Positions 7,685-55,308 of a DNA stretch of 64,000 nt are shown one piece after another. The notes under the pieces were generated by a model. The model searched no databases, was not told where the DNA came from, and saw only the letters and a program-made list of their open reading frames with translations. Every line of letters begins with the position of its first letter. Within the stretch, counting starts at the first letter, position 1. Both the position numbers and the translations under genes were made by a program. Origin of the DNA: Candidatus Spyradenecus sp. (lineage in GTDB: Bacteria > Verrucomicrobiota > Kiritimatiellia > RFP12 > DVOR01); contig JAZRAG010000075.1 in assembly GCA_045634445.1 (NCBI GenBank), positions 7,782-71,781 of the forward strand, in the 5' to 3' direction.

Positions 7685-7790
7685 TTAAAGAAGGCTTGTT
7701 TTGACCTTCAAAAGAACCTCTTTTGCACTTCAAAAGCATTTGTTTTCAATCTCAAAACAAGCTGTTTTCAAAAACCTTGATTTTAAAGGC
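7685..7790. repeat. copy of a dispersed intergenic palindromic repeat family (CAAAACAAGCY / RGCTTGTTTTG units)
   Basis: Shares exact 16-mer TTTTAAAGAAGGCTTG with 61584-61599 and unit structure with 29395-29462 and 46255-46350. Confidence 0.75.
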
Positions 7791-46551: not shown

Positions 46552-46580
46552 TTGACGGATGGCGAAAATAAGAATATACT
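46552..46580 (+). promoter_or_regulatory. candidate sigma70 promoter of the secretin/PilM operon (TTGACG-N17-TATACT)
   Basis: Consensus-like hexamers ~55 nt upstream of ATG 46633; GGAG RBS. Confidence 0.45.
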
Positions 46581-46632: not shown

Positions 46633-47457
46633 ATGAAGTCATGGATGATGGTTTTGTTAGCAGCACTTTGCGCTGGTACTGTAATGGCACAGAGCCGGAA
46701 TGGTAAGCAGAAGCAAGGCAAGTCAAAAAATAATGAGGCTGGCCAGTTCATTTCAATTAAGGAAATCTCTTCGGTGGGCGGTGAAAGCGATTACGCTGTG
46801 GAAGCTCCTACCACGGATGATAACTGGAAGAAGGTGAAGATCAACCACGTGGATTCCTACAAGAAGGAAGGCGCGAAGGGTTGGCACTTCTTTGAAGTTG
46901 CTTACGAAGTGGATAAGGTGGGCATTGATCCTGAGAAGAAGAAAACATTGCCGCTCTTTGTGTTGCCCGAAGTGGAAATTACCTACGCGCTCCTTTATGA
47001 TATGACCGAATCGAAGCACACCTCTTCGGTGAAATCGCAGGCGAACAAGGCTGGCGGTGCGATTGGTTGGGATAAGCCTGATCAGACGAATATTTTGTTC
47101 TCTGAAACAGTGGTTTACTCTCAAGTCACTCCTGGTCGTGTGCACTACGCAGCAGTGTGCGTCCCGCCGAATGCCGTTGTGCTTTACGGGAAACCCATCG
47201 TCTTCTCCGTGCAGATTAAGGTTGATGGAGTGCAGCAGGGCGAAATCGAAACGCAGTTCTTGGGCGGCAAGAAGATTGAAGGTAAGGAAATTACTTCCTT
47301 GTTAGTCGGCGCCAAGAAGGAAAAGATTGCTTGGTGGGAAACGATTCAGACAAAGTCTAAGACCGTGCAGAAGGTGGACAATGTGTTGCGTGACCGTTCG
47401 CAGACGCCCTTCGCATTGGTTGGCGATATGTACTATGACCAAGTGAAGGCTAAGTAA
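46633..47457 (+). CDS. secreted beta-rich protein, first gene of the pili-like cluster (positional analogue of Amuc_1102)
   Basis: Sec signal peptide MKSWMMVLLAALCAGTVMAQS; no TM thereafter. Confidence 0.6.
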   Translation: MKSWMMVLLAALCAGTVMAQSRNGKQKQGKSKNNEAGQFISIKEISSVGGESDYAVEAPTTDDNWKKVKINHVDSYKKEGAKGWHFFEVAYEVDKVGIDPEKKKTLPLFVLPEVEITYALLYDMTESKHTSSVKSQANKAGGAIGWDKPDQTNILFSETVVYSQVTPGRVHYAAVCVPPNAVVLYGKPIVFSVQIKVDGVQQGEIETQFLGGKKIEGKEITSLLVGAKKEKIAWWETIQTKSKTVQKVDNVLRDRSQTPFALVGDMYYDQVKAK

Positions 47458-47493: not shown

Positions 47494-49179
47494 ATGGAAC
47501 GTATTTTAACACTTAATATCGGCGCGACGCGTCTTGCGCTTGCCGAGTTTGAGGTCAGGGCCGGTCGCGGCCCCGGCCTCTTGCGCTATGCTTTTGGCGA
47601 CTTGCCAGATGGTAGCACGGACAATCCAACCGCTTTTGCAATTGAAGTGGAGCAAGTCCTTCGTGGCATGATGGTGATGTCGGGCATTCGCCCCGGCCGC
47701 ATCCATGTGGCACTCTCTGGACAGATGGCATTCCCGCGCTTCATTAAGGTGCTTGCAGACAGTCCTGAAAAGATGGATGAACAAATCCGTTTCGAGCAGG
47801 AGCAGGCTGCACCCTTCCCCTTGACCGAAGCTATCTTCTCACACGCATTGGTCGGTGAGCCCGATGTCGGTGAACAGCATGTGATGATCATCGCTTCTCG
47901 TGAAGCGCTTGTTTCTTCCGTGACGCGTGCACTGTTGAATATGGGCTGCGAACCCGATGTGGTAGATGTTGCTCCGATTGCGCTCTACAACGCTGTGCGC
48001 TTTAACTATCCTGAAATGGATGGTTGCACCCTTGTTGTGGATATTGGTGCACGCTGCACAAACTTGGTCTTTGTGGAGCAGGATCGCATCTTCTATCGTT
48101 CGATTCCTGTCGCGGGCAATACGATTACTGCAGAAATCGCCAAGACCTTCGGTATCACCCCTGAAGAAGCTGAAGCCTTCAAGTGCGAACAGGGTATTGT
48201 GGCACAAGGTGGCGCATTTGCAGTAGATGATCCCGATGTGGACCGTCTCTCCAAGGTGATTCGTAATGTCATGACGCGTTTGAACGCAGAAGTGGCACGT
48301 TCAATCTCCTTCTATCGTAGCCAGCAGGGCGGTAGCGCACCCTCGCAGATGTTGCTCACAGGTGCCTCCTCGCAGTTGCCTTACATGCAGAACTTCTTTG
48401 AAGAAAAACTGCAGATTGCGGTTGACTTCTTGAACCCCTTCCAGACTGTGGCATTCCCCAAGCACGTGGATGCAGAACAGTTTGGCCATGACGCCTTCTC
48501 CTTGCCCGTATTGGTGGGCTTGGCCTTGCGTCGCGGCTTGACCTGCCCAGTGGAAATCAACTTGGTTTCCCAGGAAATCGTAAATCGCAAGATTTTCCGT
48601 CGTCGTTTGCCCTTCCTCGGCCTCGCAGCAGTGGGTATGGTCGCGACATTGGGCATTTGGTGGCTCTTTGTGAACAACCTCAAGAACTCTTACGAAACGC
48701 ATCAAGAAAACTTGGCATCTCGTATTAGTGACTATCAGGACCAAAAGGATCGTTACGATCGCGTAGATAAGAAGGCTAAGACTGCAGAAGCTCGTGCCGC
48801 CGCTTATCGTGCGTTGATGAAGCGCCGTGGTCAGTGGTTGGACATGATGGTGGCTATTGATGACGCCGTGCCCAATGGTCTCTGGGTGACAAGCATGAAG
48901 GCTCGTCGTCAAGACAACGTCTTACAGGGCGTGGACCTCACCGTTTCTGCTTGGAAGGATCTTGAGCCGCGTTTGGTAGAAAAGGGTAAAACCATCGCAG
49001 AAACCATTGCTAGCCGTCTTGCAACACAAGAAGTCTTCGTGGATGACGCAAAGGAAATCACAATCAGCAAAATCAATCAGAGCGTTGATTGGATGACCTC
49101 CTTTGACCTCACCGCTAAGCTTAAAGGTGTGGAAGAAGCAGCAGCTAAGACGAACAACAAGCGTCGCACCCGGAGGTAA
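47494..49179 (+). CDS. pilM: type IV pilus assembly protein PilM (actin-like ATPase fold) fused to a PilN-like TM + coiled-coil C-terminal region
   Basis: PilM pattern LNIGATRLALAE...VVDIGARCTNLVFVE...LTGASSQLP; TM FLGLAAVGMVATLGIWWLFVNNL at ~aa 385 followed by charged helical segment. Confidence 0.75.
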   Translation: MERILTLNIGATRLALAEFEVRAGRGPGLLRYAFGDLPDGSTDNPTAFAIEVEQVLRGMMVMSGIRPGRIHVALSGQMAFPRFIKVLADSPEKMDEQIRFEQEQAAPFPLTEAIFSHALVGEPDVGEQHVMIIASREALVSSVTRALLNMGCEPDVVDVAPIALYNAVRFNYPEMDGCTLVVDIGARCTNLVFVEQDRIFYRSIPVAGNTITAEIAKTFGITPEEAEAFKCEQGIVAQGGAFAVDDPDVDRLSKVIRNVMTRLNAEVARSISFYRSQQGGSAPSQMLLTGASSQLPYMQNFFEEKLQIAVDFLNPFQTVAFPKHVDAEQFGHDAFSLPVLVGLALRRGLTCPVEINLVSQEIVNRKIFRRRLPFLGLAAVGMVATLGIWWLFVNNLKNSYETHQENLASRISDYQDQKDRYDRVDKKAKTAEARAAAYRALMKRRGQWLDMMVAIDDAVPNGLWVTSMKARRQDNVLQGVDLTVSAWKDLEPRLVEKGKTIAETIASRLATQEVFVDDAKEITISKINQSVDWMTSFDLTAKLKGVEEAAAKTNNKRRTRR

Positions 49180-49186
49180 GTAATTT

Positions 49187-50287
49187 ATGGATCCTAAACA
49201 AAAACTCATCTTCGGAATTGTAGCAGGCGCTTGCACTGCTGCAATCATCGCGCTTGCAGCGTTGCTCTTTGGGCAAATCGGAGCGAAGAACGAAGCAAAA
49301 GAAGCGCGCGATAATGCCGCATCTGAAATTCGCGGCTACTACTCTGAAGCCATCTACCCTTCGAAGGCCAATCGTGATATCCGTGAACAGGATACGAAGA
49401 CCTACACTGAAGTGGCAGAAGCCGCACGAGCTTTACTCGCAAAGCCTTTGGAATATCCCAAGGGAGAATCCCCCTCGCAATTCGTGACGCGCGTGGCTGA
49501 CACCATTCACGCATTGGATGCGCGCAAGAATGCTTCCCGAGTGGAAATCTTTGATGGCATTGCCAAAAACAAGAATGCTACGCCCGCAGAGCAGGGGATG
49601 GATTACTCCTTCGGCCGCTATGTGCAGCAGGGTGAATTGCCTAAGGATACCGATGTGCCGCGTTTGGCTCATCAGTTCGCAGTGATTGAACACGTCTGCG
49701 ACATCCTTTTGGATGCAGGTGCATTGGACATCACCAAGGTCACACGTGAAATGTTCGACACCGCAGCAAAGCCTGTGCAAGAAGATAAGAATGCACGTCG
49801 CACGACGCGTCGCTCCAAGGCTAAGGAAGAACCTGTTGCAACCACAGGTGTGCAGCTCCCTGATGAACTCGCTAAGGATGGCGTCACCGCAGAGGCGTTC
49901 ACCATAACCTTCCGTGCGCAGTATGCAACCATCGCGAAAGTAATGAATACCTTGGCCAAGGATTCCCTCTTTGTCGTGGTAACGGATGTCTCCTTTAATA
50001 ATCCTATGGACTTGCGTACGCGTGTTGCCGACATGGTGAAGCGTCGTGAATCTGCTCGCGCGACCGCTGCACGTCGTAATCGCAATCGTGCCGCAGAAGA
50101 AAATGCAGAACCCGTTAAGGAAGTCGCACTCTTTGAAACTGCAGCACCTGCAGAGCGCTTGGTTACCGACCCCGAAAACGCGATGCCGATGGAAGTCTCC
50201 ATTTCGTTTGAAGTTTATTCGGTGCCTCCCGCTGAAGAGCCTGAAGCCGAAACCGCCGAAACCGATTCGGCCAAAACTGCAGAATAA
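49187..50287 (+). CDS. bitopic membrane protein, Amuc_1100-like / PilO-like
   Basis: N-terminal TM LIFGIVAGACTAAIIALAALLF; segment TFRAQYATIAKVMNTLAKDSLFVVVTDVSFNN resembles (from memory) Amuc_1100 AFQGDRESVLKAMNAITGMQDYLFTVNSIRIRN. Confidence 0.55.
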   Translation: MDPKQKLIFGIVAGACTAAIIALAALLFGQIGAKNEAKEARDNAASEIRGYYSEAIYPSKANRDIREQDTKTYTEVAEAARALLAKPLEYPKGESPSQFVTRVADTIHALDARKNASRVEIFDGIAKNKNATPAEQGMDYSFGRYVQQGELPKDTDVPRLAHQFAVIEHVCDILLDAGALDITKVTREMFDTAAKPVQEDKNARRTTRRSKAKEEPVATTGVQLPDELAKDGVTAEAFTITFRAQYATIAKVMNTLAKDSLFVVVTDVSFNNPMDLRTRVADMVKRRESARATAARRNRNRAAEENAEPVKEVALFETAAPAERLVTDPENAMPMEVSISFEVYSVPPAEEPEAETAETDSAKTAE

Positions 50288-50305: not shown

Positions 50306-51445
50306 ATGGCAAACCAACTTCCTCCATTTTTAAAGCACTACGATCGCCTCGCCGCGGTCTTAGTCTTGGTGGCATTGTTGATCTCCCTCGCCTTCCTCGT
50401 GCTGAGGGGTGTTAGCCTCCAGCAAGAAGAGCGCGAATACGATGCAGACCTTGAAGCAGGTCAGCCCTCAACCTCTCAAGTGAAGCCTGCTGATAACGCA
50501 GCAGACCTCGCTTTGATTGCTGTGGTGGCAAATCCGCCCGCTGAAAAGTTGCTCGCACTTCAGGACAATCCTGAACTTGCAAACATGGGTACGCCTGAAC
50601 GCCGCTTGCTCTGCGTGAAGTGCACCAAGCCCATCGTTTGGGGTGCAGAAAAGTGCACCTTCTGCGCAGCCGTTCAGCCTAAGGAAGAAAAGATTGACCT
50701 CGCAGCGGTTGACTCCGATGGTGACGGCATTCCTGATATTGAAGAATTGAAGCTTAAGCTCAATCCGCAGGACGGCAATGACGTTGACTTGGATAATGAT
50801 GCCGACGGCTTCACGAATATTGAAGAATATTTGGCAAAGACCGATATGAACGATGCTGCAAGCCACCCTGGCTATGAAGGTCGTTTTGCATTGAAGTCAA
50901 TTGAAGGCACGAAGTTGCAAATTCGCGCAATCGATAAGATGCAGCTCCCCTCCACGAAGGATGCAGACGGAAAGAGTGTTTCTCACTACGCAGTCACCTT
51001 CGTTTCTGTGAATGCAGATGGTGTGATGGGTACCAATCCTGTTCGCGCTAAGGATGGCGAAGAAATTATGTCTAAGGCAGGCACCAGTACTGGTTATCGC
51101 TTTGTTCGCTACAACGAGCTTCCTAAGAAGAAGATTGAAGTTGGCGAACACAAGCAACAGCGCTTTGTTGACGTTTCGGAAGTTGAACTTGTGCGTGTGG
51201 CTGACAATAAGAAAATTGTCACCATTATGTATGACAAAAACAATCCCGAATGGCCTGGCGATCCGCTACTTGAACAGCGCGCAACTTTGGAATTTGACAT
51301 CCCTGGCGTGAAAAACGTGGTTGTTGCTCCTGGTGGTAAATTCACCGTAAAGGGCGAAAAATACACGGTTTTGAGCGTTGATGCCGAGAAAAAAGTCGTA
51401 ACCATTCAGAAAAATGCGACTGGCGCGAAATTTGACTTGAAATAA
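50306..51445 (+). CDS. bitopic membrane protein with zinc-ribbon and DxDxDG calcium-binding motifs (positional analogue of Amuc_1099; PilP-like role possible)
   Basis: TM LAAVLVLVALLISLAFLVL; CVKC...CTFC; DSDGDGIPDIEE and DLDNDADGFTNIEEY; beta-rich C-terminus. Confidence 0.55.
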   Translation: MANQLPPFLKHYDRLAAVLVLVALLISLAFLVLRGVSLQQEEREYDADLEAGQPSTSQVKPADNAADLALIAVVANPPAEKLLALQDNPELANMGTPERRLLCVKCTKPIVWGAEKCTFCAAVQPKEEKIDLAAVDSDGDGIPDIEELKLKLNPQDGNDVDLDNDADGFTNIEEYLAKTDMNDAASHPGYEGRFALKSIEGTKLQIRAIDKMQLPSTKDADGKSVSHYAVTFVSVNADGVMGTNPVRAKDGEEIMSKAGTSTGYRFVRYNELPKKKIEVGEHKQQRFVDVSEVELVRVADNKKIVTIMYDKNNPEWPGDPLLEQRATLEFDIPGVKNVVVAPGGKFTVKGEKYTVLSVDAEKKVVTIQKNATGAKFDLK

Positions 51446-51519: not shown

Positions 51520-54500
51520 ATGACACAATTTGTACGCTTTGCCATGATCGGCGCATTAGCCGCTGGGGCATCAGTATGCGCCATTGCGCAAGACGATGAC
51601 AGTCTTGACGCCCTCTTGGGGGACCTCGTAGAGGATGTCGCGATTGAAGAAGACGCTGTAGCTGTCGACGAAATCGCTGACGAACCTGCTGAAGAAGTCG
51701 CCGAAGTGCCTGCCGAAGAAGCAGTCGAAGAGGTCGCTGAAGAAGTTGCTGCCGTCGACGAAGATCCTATCGCAGATGAACCTGCAGAAGACGTCGCTGA
51801 AGTCCCCGCAGAAGAAGCGGTGGAAGAAGTTGCTGAAGTTGCAGATGAACCTGCTGAAGAGGTCGTGGAAGAAGTCGCCGAAGCAGACGAACCCGCAGCC
51901 GAAGTCGAAGAAGTGATCGCCGAAGCAGACGAGCCCGCAGAAGAAGTTGCGGAAGAAGTCGCTGAAGTTGAAGCTGACGCAGACGAAGCAGTCGAAGTGG
52001 TTGAAGTGGCAGACGAGCCCGCAGAAGAAGCTGTGGAAGAAGTCGCTGTCGCAGACATGGAAACTGAAATCAAAGAAATCGCGGAAGCTCCTGCAGACGA
52101 ACCCGCCGAAGGTTTGCTCGCTGGCGTCAACACCTCCGTTGAACCGATTGAAGAACTTACCGAAGAAGAACGCAAGTATAATGATCTTGCGCTCTTGATG
52201 GAACTCAAGAATCGTGGCTTGGATAACCATGCATATGCTTGCTTGGCTAAGGCTCGTGAATTGATGACCACGCCTCCGCAGCCTGGCAAGGCCTTCAATC
52301 AGTACGCTGATGCTATTAAGATGTATAAGGACGCTCAGGTTTACTTCCGTCAGCGCGAAGAAAACCTCCCTCTCCGCAATGAGTGTGACATCGGCATCCG
52401 CGAAGCTGAATATCGTCAGGCAAAGGTTCGCTTTGAAGAAGGTAACTTCGTTGAAGCTCTTGAAATGGCTCAGAATGTCCAGCTCAGCGGCCATCCTCAG
52501 GGCGCAGCTTTGATTGAAATCATTCAGGACGAAATGAATAAGCCGGTGGAAGTTCGCCCGAACCCCATCCTTCCTGAATACGCTAAGGAAGAATATCAGC
52601 GCAATCGTTTGGCCATTCAGGAACGTATGCGCCGTGCAACCGTTTACTTCCAGCTCGCTAAGTATCGTGAAGCAAACGATCAGTTGGAACTCATTCTCCG
52701 TGATGACCCCAACAATGAAGAAGCAATTAGCTTGCGTGCTCGCGTGAATCGTCGTCATGCAGATCGCAATCGTCAGTTGAAGTATTCCACACACGATGAA
52801 ATGATTAGCCAGGTGGAAGCTAACTGGACTCCCCTTGGTGCTCTCGCCCGCAACTCTGAAGAACTCTACGCTCCTGTAGAATCTAAGGGTGCCACCACGA
52901 AGGTGAACAAGGAGGGCGAAAAGGAAGAAGCAGTCGTGATGGCTAAGTTGCAGTACATCCGCTTGCCTGAATTCTCTATCCGTCCGCCGAGCACGCTCGC
53001 TGACGCAGTTGCGCTCTTCGCTGAACTCTCTAAGGATTACGACAAGCCCGAACTTCCTCCGGAAGAAAAGGGTATCGCTTTCGTGTTGAACATGGGCAAA
53101 AAGCCCGCGGCAGCTGCGGAAGAAACCGAAGATGATCCGTTCGCATCTGAATCGGAATCCTCCTCTGGCCTTCCTCCGATTGCCTCCATCTCCATGCCTT
53201 GGGTGACCCTCAAGGAAGCATTGGACATGGTTTGCGAAGTGACTGGCTCCAAGTACGTGATTAAGGGTAAAATCGTGATGATCGTTCCCGCAACACACGT
53301 TGACGGTATCATGGTCACGCGTTCCTATAACGTGATGGGCGGCTTGGTTGAAAAGCTCAGCCAAGTGAACAGTGAAATGGGTTCTTCTAGCGATGACAGC
53401 GATTGGGGTTCTGACTCCGAAAGTAGCTTCACTGCACCCTCTACCGACGCGGCATCCTTGAAGGCCTTCTTCACTGACCTCGGCGTGCCCTTTGATGGTG
53501 GTGCTCGAATCGCCTACTTGCCGACCATCGGTAAGCTCCGTGTTACAAATACTCCTGAAAACTTGGCAATCCTCGAAGGCGTCCTTGAAGACCTCAACGT
53601 GACTCCGTCTCAGATTGAAGTTGAAGCTCGCTTCGTTGAAGTAAGCCAGGAAGACTTGAACTCCCTCGGTTTTGAATGGGGCTTGAATGGTGACGTTGTT
53701 GGCACCATCGGTTCTGGTATCGACTGGGCTGACTCTGTGATTTCTGGCAATGCTAACCGTGGTCTCGCCGCAGGCGGTACTGGTGCAAATGGCAATGTCT
53801 TCCGCCCTGGACGCGGTGGCACGGGTGATGCAAACGTAGCTGTTCATGGTGGCTCTCTTAATAATGGTATGCGCTTCCTTGGCGATGGTAATGCATATGC
53901 AAATCGTATTAACCTCGCAGGTAGCACCATTGCTCCCGATGATACCTTTGCCAGCTTCTCCGCTGTCTTTGGTCGCGTGGACATGACGATGGTCCTCCAC
54001 ATGTTGGCTCAGCGCTCCGATACGGATATGCTCTCCAGCCCCAAGGTGCTCGCACGCCCTGGCCAGGAAGCACTCATCCGCGTGGTGACCGAACACATTT
54101 ATCCTACCGAATTCGATATTACCGAACTCGAAGAAGCTGAACAGAACTGGAACGGTAATAACGGTGGTAGCAGCCTTGCTGGAGGCTTGACCGGTGGCCT
54201 CATCGGTGGTAATAATGTGCAGATGAATGCACCGCCTGTGAAGTTCGCTGTTGAACCTCAGTCCTTCGAAAAGACGGACGTGGGTGTCTCCTTGCAGGTT
54301 GTCCCTGAACTTTCTCAGGAAGGTCAGATGATCAACATGTTGGTCAACCCCAAGGTTGTTGAATATCTCGGTGACTTTGACTACGGTATGAAGGTGCCTT
54401 ACATCCAGTACGGCATGACCGCAGGTGCAGTTTCTAGCGCTCAGGTTGAATACTACAACGTAGAAATGCCTCAGCCGAAGTTCCATGTTCGTGAAATCAA

Positions 54501-54786
54501 TACCTATATCTCTGTCTACAACGGCTCTACGGTTGTGATGGGTGGCTTGATTACCGAAACGCGTAAGTCCTTCGAAGATAAGGTTCCGTTCTTGGGTGAC
54601 CTTCCCTTCATTGGCTTCCTCTTCCGCTCTAAGGGCGAATTCAGCGAAAAGCGCAACCTCCTCGTCTTCCTTACCGCTCGTTTGGTTGACCCTGCAGGCC
54701 GCCCGTTGAAGACCGCTACCGATGGTCGTACAGGCAATGCTGCAATGGATACCGCAGCAGAAACCATGGACTCCATCGCAGAGTAA
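51520..54786 (+). CDS. pilQ: secretin (PilQ/GspD family), 1088 aa, with signal peptide, ~170-aa acidic repeat region, TPR-like helical region and Gly/Asn-rich insert
   Basis: C-terminal secretin domain (VPFLGDLPFIGFLFRSKGEFSEKRNLLVFLTARLVDPAGRP); signal MTQFVRFAMIGALAAGASVCAIAQ. Confidence 0.85.
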   Translation: MTQFVRFAMIGALAAGASVCAIAQDDDSLDALLGDLVEDVAIEEDAVAVDEIADEPAEEVAEVPAEEAVEEVAEEVAAVDEDPIADEPAEDVAEVPAEEAVEEVAEVADEPAEEVVEEVAEADEPAAEVEEVIAEADEPAEEVAEEVAEVEADADEAVEVVEVADEPAEEAVEEVAVADMETEIKEIAEAPADEPAEGLLAGVNTSVEPIEELTEEERKYNDLALLMELKNRGLDNHAYACLAKARELMTTPPQPGKAFNQYADAIKMYKDAQVYFRQREENLPLRNECDIGIREAEYRQAKVRFEEGNFVEALEMAQNVQLSGHPQGAALIEIIQDEMNKPVEVRPNPILPEYAKEEYQRNRLAIQERMRRATVYFQLAKYREANDQLELILRDDPNNEEAISLRARVNRRHADRNRQLKYSTHDEMISQVEANWTPLGALARNSEELYAPVESKGATTKVNKEGEKEEAVVMAKLQYIRLPEFSIRPPSTLADAVALFAELSKDYDKPELPPEEKGIAFVLNMGKKPAAAAEETEDDPFASESESSSGLPPIASISMPWVTLKEALDMVCEVTGSKYVIKGKIVMIVPATHVDGIMVTRSYNVMGGLVEKLSQVNSEMGSSSDDSDWGSDSESSFTAPSTDAASLKAFFTDLGVPFDGGARIAYLPTIGKLRVTNTPENLAILEGVLEDLNVTPSQIEVEARFVEVSQEDLNSLGFEWGLNGDVVGTIGSGIDWADSVISGNANRGLAAGGTGANGNVFRPGRGGTGDANVAVHGGSLNNGMRFLGDGNAYANRINLAGSTIAPDDTFASFSAVFGRVDMTMVLHMLAQRSDTDMLSSPKVLARPGQEALIRVVTEHIYPTEFDITELEEAEQNWNGNNGGSSLAGGLTGGLIGGNNVQMNAPPVKFAVEPQSFEKTDVGVSLQVVPELSQEGQMINMLVNPKVVEYLGDFDYGMKVPYIQYGMTAGAVSSAQVEYYNVEMPQPKFHVREINTYISVYNGSTVVMGGLITETRKSFEDKVPFLGDLPFIGFLFRSKGEFSEKRNLLVFLTARLVDPAGRPLKTATDGRTGNAAMDTAAETMDSIAE
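51640..52110 (+). repeat. degenerate in-frame tandem repeats encoding (A/V)EE(V/A)AE..DEPAEE units
   Basis: Repeated gaagaagtcgc / gacgaacctgc blocks; about 10 units of 14-18 codons. Confidence 0.7.
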
Positions 54787-54805
54787 GGTTGAGAAAACTA
54801 AAAGA

Positions 54806-54838
54806 AAACGCGGCATGAAAGTGCCGCGTTTCTTTTTA
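54806..54838 (+). terminator. intrinsic terminator of the secretin operon (aacgcggca/tgccgcgtt + TCTTTTTATT)
   Basis: 9-bp GC-rich stem, 6-nt loop, T-run. Confidence 0.8.
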
Positions 54839-55308
54839 TTAAAGACTTGGTTTGATATATCACACATTTAACTAGCAATAAAGCAGAGGATTGGAAACTG
54901 TTCGAATAGATTGAGATATGATAATTTTAAGAGAGACACAATCGTAGAGAAGGGCATAAAGTGTGATCTTTAATTATAGCCAGAGTTAAAAACATCTTTT
55001 AGAAGTGGGGTATATCGGAGTGGTTTGTGATAGAGAAGAGGGTATAAGAATAAAAGATTTCTAAGGTGTAGGTAACGCGGATAAATGTAGAAATCTTGGG
55101 TGTGAATCGTTACTGAATGTGGTAGTTAACACTGAAAGTTTGGCAACATTCTCGTAGTGATGTAATCTTTAAGGGATAACGAATATTGTGATGTCATTAA
55201 AGGAAATTTAAGCAGGGTTCTGTTAGGTGTTATTTATAAAAGAGGGGCACTCTTTAATTTTGCTATAAATAAAGCGTTAAATAAATTAAAGAAAGTTTAA
55301 AAAAGTAC

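Follow-up and report, generated by a model that had tools for sequence, protein, structure and literature searches.

Why should a gene directly ahead of a secretin gene encode a protein that appears to carry both a zinc-ribbon-like module and calcium-type loops on the periplasmic side of the inner membrane? This question is raised by an open reading frame (ORF) at 50306–51445 (+) in a stretch of 64,000 nucleotides (nt) from Candidatus Spyradenecus sp. (contig JAZRAG010000075.1 of the assembly GCA_045634445.1, forward-strand positions 7,782 to 71,781; this whole stretch is referred to as the window hereafter). An earlier sequence-only reading had proposed a metal-stabilised, periplasm-facing adaptor in the PilP-like position of a secretin operon, and its translation of the ORF and the peptides that it quoted were reproduced exactly (379 amino acids (aa) and a stop codon). 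From the profile, conservation and structure-model evidence given below, the product is predicted to be a bitopic inner-membrane protein of the Amuc_1099 family, in which a stalk, a four-cysteine (Cys4) module, a TSP3 pair and a beta domain follow the membrane helix in this order, all of them in the periplasm. We hold with about even confidence that the protein acts as a periplasm-spanning connector of a type IV pilus-like machine, that is, as a functional analogue of PilP/GspC/GspB in which the ribbon and the calcium loops serve as metal-stiffened spacers.

The family and the system are already catalogued, and the gene is a recognisable member inside this known system. It stands fourth in an operon of five genes, in the order Amuc_1102-like, PilM-fusion (Amuc_1101), Amuc_1100-like, Amuc_1099 and secretin (Amuc_1098), with gaps of 7–74 nt between the genes. 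The NCBIfam model NF042425 ("Amuc_1099 family pilus-like system protein"; 321 positions, equivalog type, cut-off 50 bits) matched the product with 67 bits (E = 2.1e-18), and residues 139–367 were aligned to model positions 105–320 only, so that the match does not run from end to end. Similar scores were obtained for the homologues P0013, P0041 and P0053 (63–91 bits) and for the Cys4-bearing proteins overall (63–97 bits), which match the C-terminal two-thirds of the model only. Another homologue (P0033) carries the NCBI name of the family. Among species representatives, Candidatus Spyradenecus (Lentisphaerota) comes closest, with 56% identity.

The gene context agrees with this assignment: like Amuc_1099 of Akkermansia muciniphila, the gene has an Amuc_1100-like gene on one side and an Amuc_1098-type secretin gene on the other, and an Amuc_1101 PilM-like gene lies further upstream. 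The same gene order was found in five related loci of Kiritimatiellia and Lentisphaeraceae (L001–L005), and a partial one in loci of Verrucomicrobia (L006), Akkermansiaceae (L040 and L063) and Verrucomicrobiales (L057). All five genes are kept even in L088 and L089, the members of which show 23–27% identity; there, PF28178 (Amuc_1102) and PF28028 (Amuc_1100) occur at the positions of the Amuc_1102-like and Amuc_1100-like genes, respectively, and the Amuc_1102-like gene is also conserved in L001 and L005. In every related locus with an identifiable secretin, a gene of this type stands directly upstream of the secretin gene and after the PilM-like and Amuc_1100-like genes.

The modules of the protein were delimited as follows, all coordinates being those of the forward strand. 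The N-tail (residues 1–14; 50306–50347), which is predicted to be cytoplasmic and has a net positive charge, carries the motif (F/L)xx(H/N)Y(D/E)(K/R) directly before the helix. This motif is kept from Kiritimatiellia to Akkermansiaceae (HYDRL, HYDKL, NYEKA), and may serve to dock a partner in the cytoplasm, for instance the PilM domain. Conservation was measured in an alignment of 43 relatives, down to 23% identity, taken from 68 database-search relatives, the named ones of which are Kiritimatiellae; M1 and D13 of the N-tail are at least 90% conserved in it. The helix itself (residues 15–33; 50348–50404), an uncleaved signal anchor without a lipobox according to hydropathy and AlphaFold, is the one hydrophobic segment found in a hydropathy scan of the protein (Kyte-Doolittle peak 3.21), as the sequence-only reading had claimed. 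The N-terminus, MANQLPPFLKHYDRLAAVLV, has neither the G/FTLxE motif of a class III signal peptide of type IV pilins and pseudopilins nor an N_methyl match in Pfam. The helix is followed by a periplasmic helical stalk and a low-confidence linker (residues 34–99; 50405–50602), delimited by AlphaFold and conservation, which end in a conserved TPERR. In the full-length AlphaFold2 model, built from the 43-sequence alignment with a mean predicted local distance difference test score (pLDDT) of 83, helices occupy residues 7–52 (continuous, spanning the membrane), 65–75 and 79–82, and the pLDDT falls to 49–70 across residues 50–100.

The Cys4 module (residues 100–124; 50603–50677), defined by conservation and profiles, begins with R100, which is at least 90% conserved, and contains the only four cysteines of the protein, C103, C106, C117 and C120 (nt 50612–50665), all within CVKCTKPIVWGAEKCTFC. 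The TSP3 pair module (residues 134–188; 50705–50869) was recognised from conservation and a sub-threshold Pfam match, and contains two DxDxDG calcium-type loops: DSDGDGIPDIEE at residues 136–147 (50711–50746) and DLDNDADGFTNIEEY at residues 161–175 (50786–50830). The remainder (residues 189–379; 50870–51442), defined by AlphaFold and profile search, is the Amuc_1099 C-terminal domain. It is all-beta in both the full-length and the domain-only AlphaFold models, with pLDDT of at least 90 in the former, which bears out the beta-rich domain described from the sequence.

Both the cysteines and the loops are conserved. In the 43-sequence alignment, C106, C117, C120, D163, D165, D167 and E174 are invariant, and conservation is 90% or more at C103, D136, D138, D140, G141, D144, E147, G168, F169, N171 and E173. 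A wider sample was given by an exhaustive profile search with the C-terminal domain, which returned 965 cluster representatives at E ≤ 1e-3: among the best 150 of these matches, 145 representatives were newly returned, and 112 of them look full-length, i.e., they have an N-terminal transmembrane segment and 320–450 aa. The strict Cys4 pattern is present in 108 of the 112, four cysteines at a wider spacing are present in three more, and the last one has none. Since four cysteines occur in 111 of 112 and none in the other, the Cys4 module behaves in an all-or-none manner and is under strong selection. The conservation in orthologues that the sequence-only reading had named as a check was therefore found for both the Cys4 segment and the Asp loops in most relatives.

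What, then, do the four cysteines form? Their spacing is C-x(1–12)-C-x10-C-x2-C, where the middle interval is mostly 10 but extends up to 16 and the last one is sometimes 4; in most cases the second knuckle reads CP[FY]C. In a further alignment (A4), all four cysteines are invariant, and 1–11 residues separate the first two. When the Cys4 segments of 32 family members were cut out and scanned against Pfam, matches were obtained to DZR (17 segments), UPF0547 (15), Zn_ribbon_3 (11; best E = 1.3e-5) and Zn_Ribbon_1 (10). A PDB profile search with the Cys4 segment likewise placed zinc ribbons on top (L40e, E = 0.0025), followed by TraR and rubredoxins, and AlphaFold placed short strands at residues 100–102 and 109–111 around the cysteine knuckles (pLDDT about 82). 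The module thus looks like a zinc ribbon from its profile resemblance: the CxxC-x10-CxxC arrangement, the CPxC second knuckle of most members and the profile matches are shared with DZR, Zn_ribbon_3, Zn_Ribbon_1 and L40e. Of the rubredoxin-like Cys4 knuckle pair described earlier, the four-cysteine knuckle pair stands, while the likeness is closer to DZR, Zn_ribbon_3 and L40e than to rubredoxin proper. Unlike those zinc ribbons, the module is predicted to lie on the periplasmic side, its first knuckle varies in spacing from 1 to 12 residues, and the segment of the window protein itself gave no Pfam match in the zinc-ribbon scan. A true periplasmic zinc ribbon here would be unusual if real; none was found for pilus or secretin systems in the literature searched.

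Two structural disulfides have to be weighed against a Zn(Cys)4 site: the cysteines would then staple a periplasmic hairpin into a small rigid knot without metal. Extracytoplasmic cysteines are usually oxidised in bacteria with Dsb systems, the tolerance of 1–12 residues within the first pair is looser than in a canonical zinc knuckle, and the all-or-none pattern fits paired disulfides as well as it fits a metal site. Nevertheless, the profile resembles zinc ribbons and not disulfide-rich families, the second knuckle is a classic CP[FY]C, and the spacing between the second and third cysteines is fixed at 10 in most members. In addition, the number of periplasmic cysteines is odd in 62 of 171 members, a weak argument against strong selection for pairing, and the hosts are apparently gut or rumen bacteria of the Planctomycetes–Verrucomicrobia–Chlamydiae (PVC) group, likely anaerobes as judged from their names. 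On this balance we regard the disulfide knot as unlikely, though a serious contender, and continue with a zinc-ribbon-like module as the preferred description.

The distribution of the module within the family gives another view of its importance. The orthologues of Akkermansiaceae (L040 and L063) and Verrucomicrobiales (L057) match NF042425 with 300–366 bits over model positions 2–321, and they have no cysteines in the region equivalent to Cys4; their first loop is degenerate (e.g., HEGIPNTWWLKYNLDP), whereas the second is retained (DPDEDGFTNREEY). P0152 resembles these cysteine-less orthologues, and the Verrucomicrobia locus L006, from one metagenome-assembled genome, does have the Cys4. Because the Cys4 is missing from the members that match the family model from end to end, the ribbon is not required for the core role of the family, and its absence there counts against the connector reading. 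The window protein therefore belongs to a divergent, Cys4-bearing branch, which predominates among the metagenomic proteins whose beta domains are closest to its own, and the Cys4 is a feature of this branch and not of the whole family. The window protein passes the curated cut-off of the family (67 versus 50 bits) and has in common with Amuc_1099 the N-terminal transmembrane anchor, the Y(D/E)(K/R) motif on the cytoplasmic side, the TSP3 loop that comes second and the beta domain at the C-terminus; it differs from the 300–366-bit members in having both the Cys4 module and an intact first DxDxDG loop.

The two loops described from the sequence, and their likeness to thrombospondin repeats, were both recovered, and they form a single module; the tools, in searches not aimed at dockerins, gave no hint of a relationship to these. 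Residues 134–188 correspond to a single copy of the TSP3 pair unit, DxDxDGxPDxWE...LNP...DxDxDGxxNxxEY..GTDP, of which large PVC proteins contain many copies. Most homologues have a precomputed PF18884 annotation, and NCBIfam gave weak matches of the loop region to MtsD (TSP3) and lanmodulin. PMC12045341, citing Dai et al. 2017, gives calcium binding as a prediction for TSP3 repeats and offers the periplasmic linkers of TraB and OmpA-type proteins as precedent. The DxDxDGxPDxxE and DxDxDGFTNxEEY motifs and the extracytoplasmic location are common to such bacterial TSP3 repeats (PF18884; OmpA-like and TraB linkers) and the window protein. In contrast to them, the window protein has only one pair module, placed in an inner-membrane-anchored pilus-system protein, and its copy lies under the Pfam gathering threshold (TSP3_bac, 13.9 bits against a cut-off of 25); calcium binding is a prediction here. 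A locus of Akkermansia muciniphila (L029) was considered as an Amuc_1099 locus and rejected; it holds an unrelated TSP3-bearing protein of 1987 aa.

The beta domain is the best modelled part of the protein. AlphaFold of residues 186–379 alone gave a pLDDT of 95.7, a predicted template-modelling score (pTM) of 0.81 and 16 strands of at least three residues. Foldseek against the PDB gave only TM-scores below 0.2 for both models (best E = 0.079 for the domain-only model and 0.014 for the full-length one), and the kelch, lipocalin and ribosomal matches among them were rejected as spurious on these values. PDB sequence and profile searches returned nothing for the domain. The weak Pfam matches of beta domains to Phage_attach (10 of 33 members; best E = 0.0023) and DUF6406 were judged to be generic small-beta-barrel noise, and hhalign between the beta domain and the Amuc_1102-like protein of the same operon was negative. 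Pfam models exist for Amuc_1100 and Amuc_1102, but the Amuc_1099 beta domain had no significant match to any Pfam model.

Can this domain be compared with the HR domain of PilP and GspC, as had been suggested from the sequence? The likeness in arrangement is clear: the gene follows PilM-like and PilN/O-like genes and immediately precedes the secretin gene, and the product has an inner-membrane anchor and a periplasmic beta-rich C-terminal part. Its anchor is an N-terminal transmembrane helix (residues 15–33), as in GspC; GspB, too, uses such an anchor (PMC9239104). Unlike PilP, it has no lipobox (no cysteine precedes residue 103), and unlike PilP and GspC, it adds the zinc-ribbon-like and TSP3 modules and has a beta domain of about 190 aa, as against roughly 70–80 aa for an HR domain. 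No similarity to the HR domain was found by Pfam, PDB profile search, hhalign or Foldseek. The term "PilP-like" thus holds for the gene position, directly before the secretin gene, and for the membrane topology only, and the HR-domain homology that it might imply was not found.

In the connector reading, the anchor would hold the protein to the inner membrane next to the PilM/N/O-like platform, while the beta head would reach the periplasmic region of the secretin or another envelope partner. The ribbon, predicted to bind Zn2+, and the TSP3 loops, predicted to bind Ca2+, would form small metal-stiffened spacers in the neck that joins stalk and head. The earlier proposal of a metal-stabilised adaptor is plausible.

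Several results, besides the cysteine-less orthologues, the missing Pfam match of the window's own Cys4 segment and the sub-threshold TSP3_bac score, weigh against this reading. Neither PilP (PF04351) nor T2SSC (PF11356) of Pfam matched any of 33 members at E ≤ 10, and PilP or GspC chains were absent from the 50 best Foldseek matches listed for either model. By hhalign, the probability was 0.2% against E. coli GspC and 0.5% against a five-sequence GspC HR profile, which is shallow and makes a weaker test than HHpred with PDB70. This profile was of the GspC type only (K-12 GspC, EtpC variants, a Pantoea protein and PulC), and the HR region of E. coli GspC, when used as the seed of a database search, had returned near-identical E. 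coli fragments only; a distant HR-like subdomain in the beta domain may still have escaped these comparisons. On the side of the secretin, Pfam detected no Secretin_N/N0 domain in the periplasmic region (residues 421–830), and hence the classical HR–N0 contact cannot be assumed.

Alternatively, the beta domain may be a module for binding ligands or envelope components in the periplasm in general, such as a glycan, peptidoglycan or an outer-membrane component; with it, Amuc_1099 would tether or sense a target other than the secretin instead of serving as an adaptor of the PilP/GspC type. The absence of HR-domain similarity and of a detectable N0 domain is in line with this, and so is the occurrence of the domain elsewhere. 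In P0143, a kinase domain (Pkinase) is followed by one transmembrane segment, DnaJ-type CxxCxGxG repeats and the beta domain; in P0156, the order is Pkinase, one transmembrane segment, beta domain and FGE-sulfatase; and in P0132, the beta domain comes after an FGE-sulfatase domain. These fusions, in which the domain belongs to the extracytoplasmic part of Ser/Thr kinases (P0143, P0156) or is joined to an FGE-sulfatase (P0132, P0156), suit a domain that binds ligands or the envelope in general no less well than an adaptor dedicated to the secretin, and in this respect also count against the connector. Set against them are the 112 of 145 newly returned representatives with the Amuc_1099 architecture and the position of the gene, immediately upstream of the secretin gene in the same five-gene cassette, in every examined locus with an identifiable secretin. 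We therefore consider a general binding module rather improbable and retain the connector.

Occurrences of the beta domain outside pilus operons were seen in P0143 (L086, 505–3171), P0156, P0132, P0159, P0142 and P0201. The DnaJ-type repeats of P0143, several in number, are zinc-finger motifs and lie directly upstream of the beta domain; cysteine-rich, zinc-finger-like modules recur next to this domain outside the cytoplasm.

A bolder proposal can be put forward as a long shot: the Cys4 would be a true periplasmic Zn(Cys)4 ribbon that acts as a redox- or metal-sensitive latch on a beta domain with a new periplasmic fold, one that receptor kinases also have. In the envelope of these anaerobic PVC bacteria, oxidation or the loss of zinc would then alter the connector neck and thereby couple the redox state of the envelope to the assembly or gating of the secretin-pilus machine.

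All these considerations require that the part behind the helix is periplasmic. One transmembrane segment was found in 43 of 43 aligned family members. The mean net charge across them is +1.05 for the N-terminal flank and −1.56 for the C-terminal flank, and as the N-terminal flank is the more positive in 39 of 43, an N-in, C-out orientation is predicted. Independent support for the extracytoplasmic placement comes from the kinase-transmembrane fusions described above and from P0150 and P0210, in which a signal peptide precedes a TSP3 pair and a beta domain. Because the window protein has one transmembrane helix only, the Cys4 ribbon should be periplasmic, on the same side as the TSP3 and beta modules. 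The inverted topology (N-out, C-in), which would bring the ribbon, the TSP3 loops and the beta domain into the cytoplasm, where zinc ribbons are typically found and Zn(Cys)4 sites are ordinary, is hardly credible: the difference in K + R between the flanks is indeed small (means of 2.5 and 1.7, equal in 13 of 43 members), but it is opposed by the net charge, by the fusions in which one transmembrane segment separates the beta domain from a kinase domain, and by the proteins in which TSP3 and beta domains come after a signal peptide. TSP3 calcium loops also belong to extracytoplasmic proteins (PMC12045341), and the proteins of the Amuc_1098–1102 cluster, including Amuc_1099, are enriched in the membrane/cell-envelope fraction of Akkermansia (PMC5332112). 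The topology check thus agrees with the periplasm-facing placement of the sequence-only reading, and neither of the observations named there as contrary to it, a cytoplasmic Cys4 segment or motifs unconserved in orthologues, was made.

Amuc_1100, encoded in the Amuc_1098–1102 cluster, is the most studied host-active protein of Akkermansia. Its neighbour Amuc_1099 has been called a hypothetical protein or merely listed in the type IV pilus-like Amuc_1098–1102 cluster (PMC5332112, PMC10688800). The present analysis defines the modular build of the family: a transmembrane anchor, a stalk, an optional zinc-ribbon-like module, calcium-type loops, and a beta domain that is modelled with confidence and has no solved relatives. 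The Cys4 is present in most metagenomic relatives, while the examined members of Akkermansiaceae and Verrucomicrobiales have lost it. New with respect to the literature searched are the predicted periplasmic-side zinc-ribbon-like module, its loss in Akkermansiaceae, the modular description of the family and the finding that its beta domain recurs in receptor kinases. The finding is incremental and overturns no current view; nevertheless, the modular build, the Cys4 distribution and the recurrence in kinases provide testable handles on the assembly of a PVC-specific pilus-like/secretin system.

The other genes of the operon are all on the forward strand. A promoter-like site upstream of the five-gene unit (46552–46580) agrees with the consensus at 10 of 12 positions, and a terminator-like hairpin (54806–54831; an 11-pair stem with a T-rich tail) begins 20 nt past the secretin stop codon; both are consensus matches only. 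The first gene (46633–47457) encodes a secreted, Amuc_1102-like protein of 274 aa, with a weak match to NCBIfam Amuc_1102_rel (E = 0.0012). The second (47494–49179) encodes 561 aa of the Amuc_1101 family, a PilM-like protein fused to a transmembrane helix and a periplasmic segment (PilM_2, E = 4e-35); it scores 415 bits with Amuc_1101_fam, below the cut-off of 650, and 140.5 bits with TIGR01175 (pilM), against a cut-off of 133. The PilM domain of this protein occupies residues 11–347, and the transmembrane helix and the periplasmic part follow, with the sequence EINLV just before the helix (48553–48567). In canonical systems, an INLLP-type peptide at the N-terminus of PilN binds PilM; the resemblance of EINLV to this peptide suggests, by analogy, a covalent PilM–PilN fusion. 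The third gene (49187–50287) encodes a bitopic, Amuc_1100-like protein of 366 aa, with 68.7 bits for Amuc_1100_fam, below the cut-off of 180, and a sequence search gave no PDB relative for it.

The secretin gene (51520–54786) encodes 1088 aa of the Amuc_1098 family with an acidic, repetitive N-region (Pfam Secretin, E = 8e-29; NCBIfam Amuc_1098_fam, 399 bits, below the cut-off of 750). After the signal peptide, about 180 aa of acidic tandem repeats rich in E, A, V, D and P are followed by a TPR-like stretch and the secretin core. At the DNA level, tandem repeats lie at 51673–52056, with periods of 42, 84 and 96 nt and up to 5.9 copies. An antisense ORF (51571–54867, −; 1098 aa) covers nearly the whole secretin gene in codon-for-codon register. 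Among the 1089 sense-strand codons of the secretin gene there are one TTA, no CTA and one TCA; owing to this near-absence, the antisense ORF is taken to be an artefact of codon usage, like the other long antisense ORFs in the window.

Next to the operon of the window itself, no pilin-like gene was seen. In L088 (1–766; the locus of P0053), a gene with a weak prepilin N_methyl match is situated about 6 kb ahead of the cassette of five genes. In L089 (5802–11307; P0061, GCA_020721745.1), two secretin genes in succession, of 1024 and 798 aa, come after the Amuc_1099-like gene instead of one. By inspection of the translations, the operon of the window is flanked upstream by genes for cysteinyl-tRNA synthetase-like and thymidylate kinase-like proteins and downstream by one for an ABC-F ATPase-like protein.

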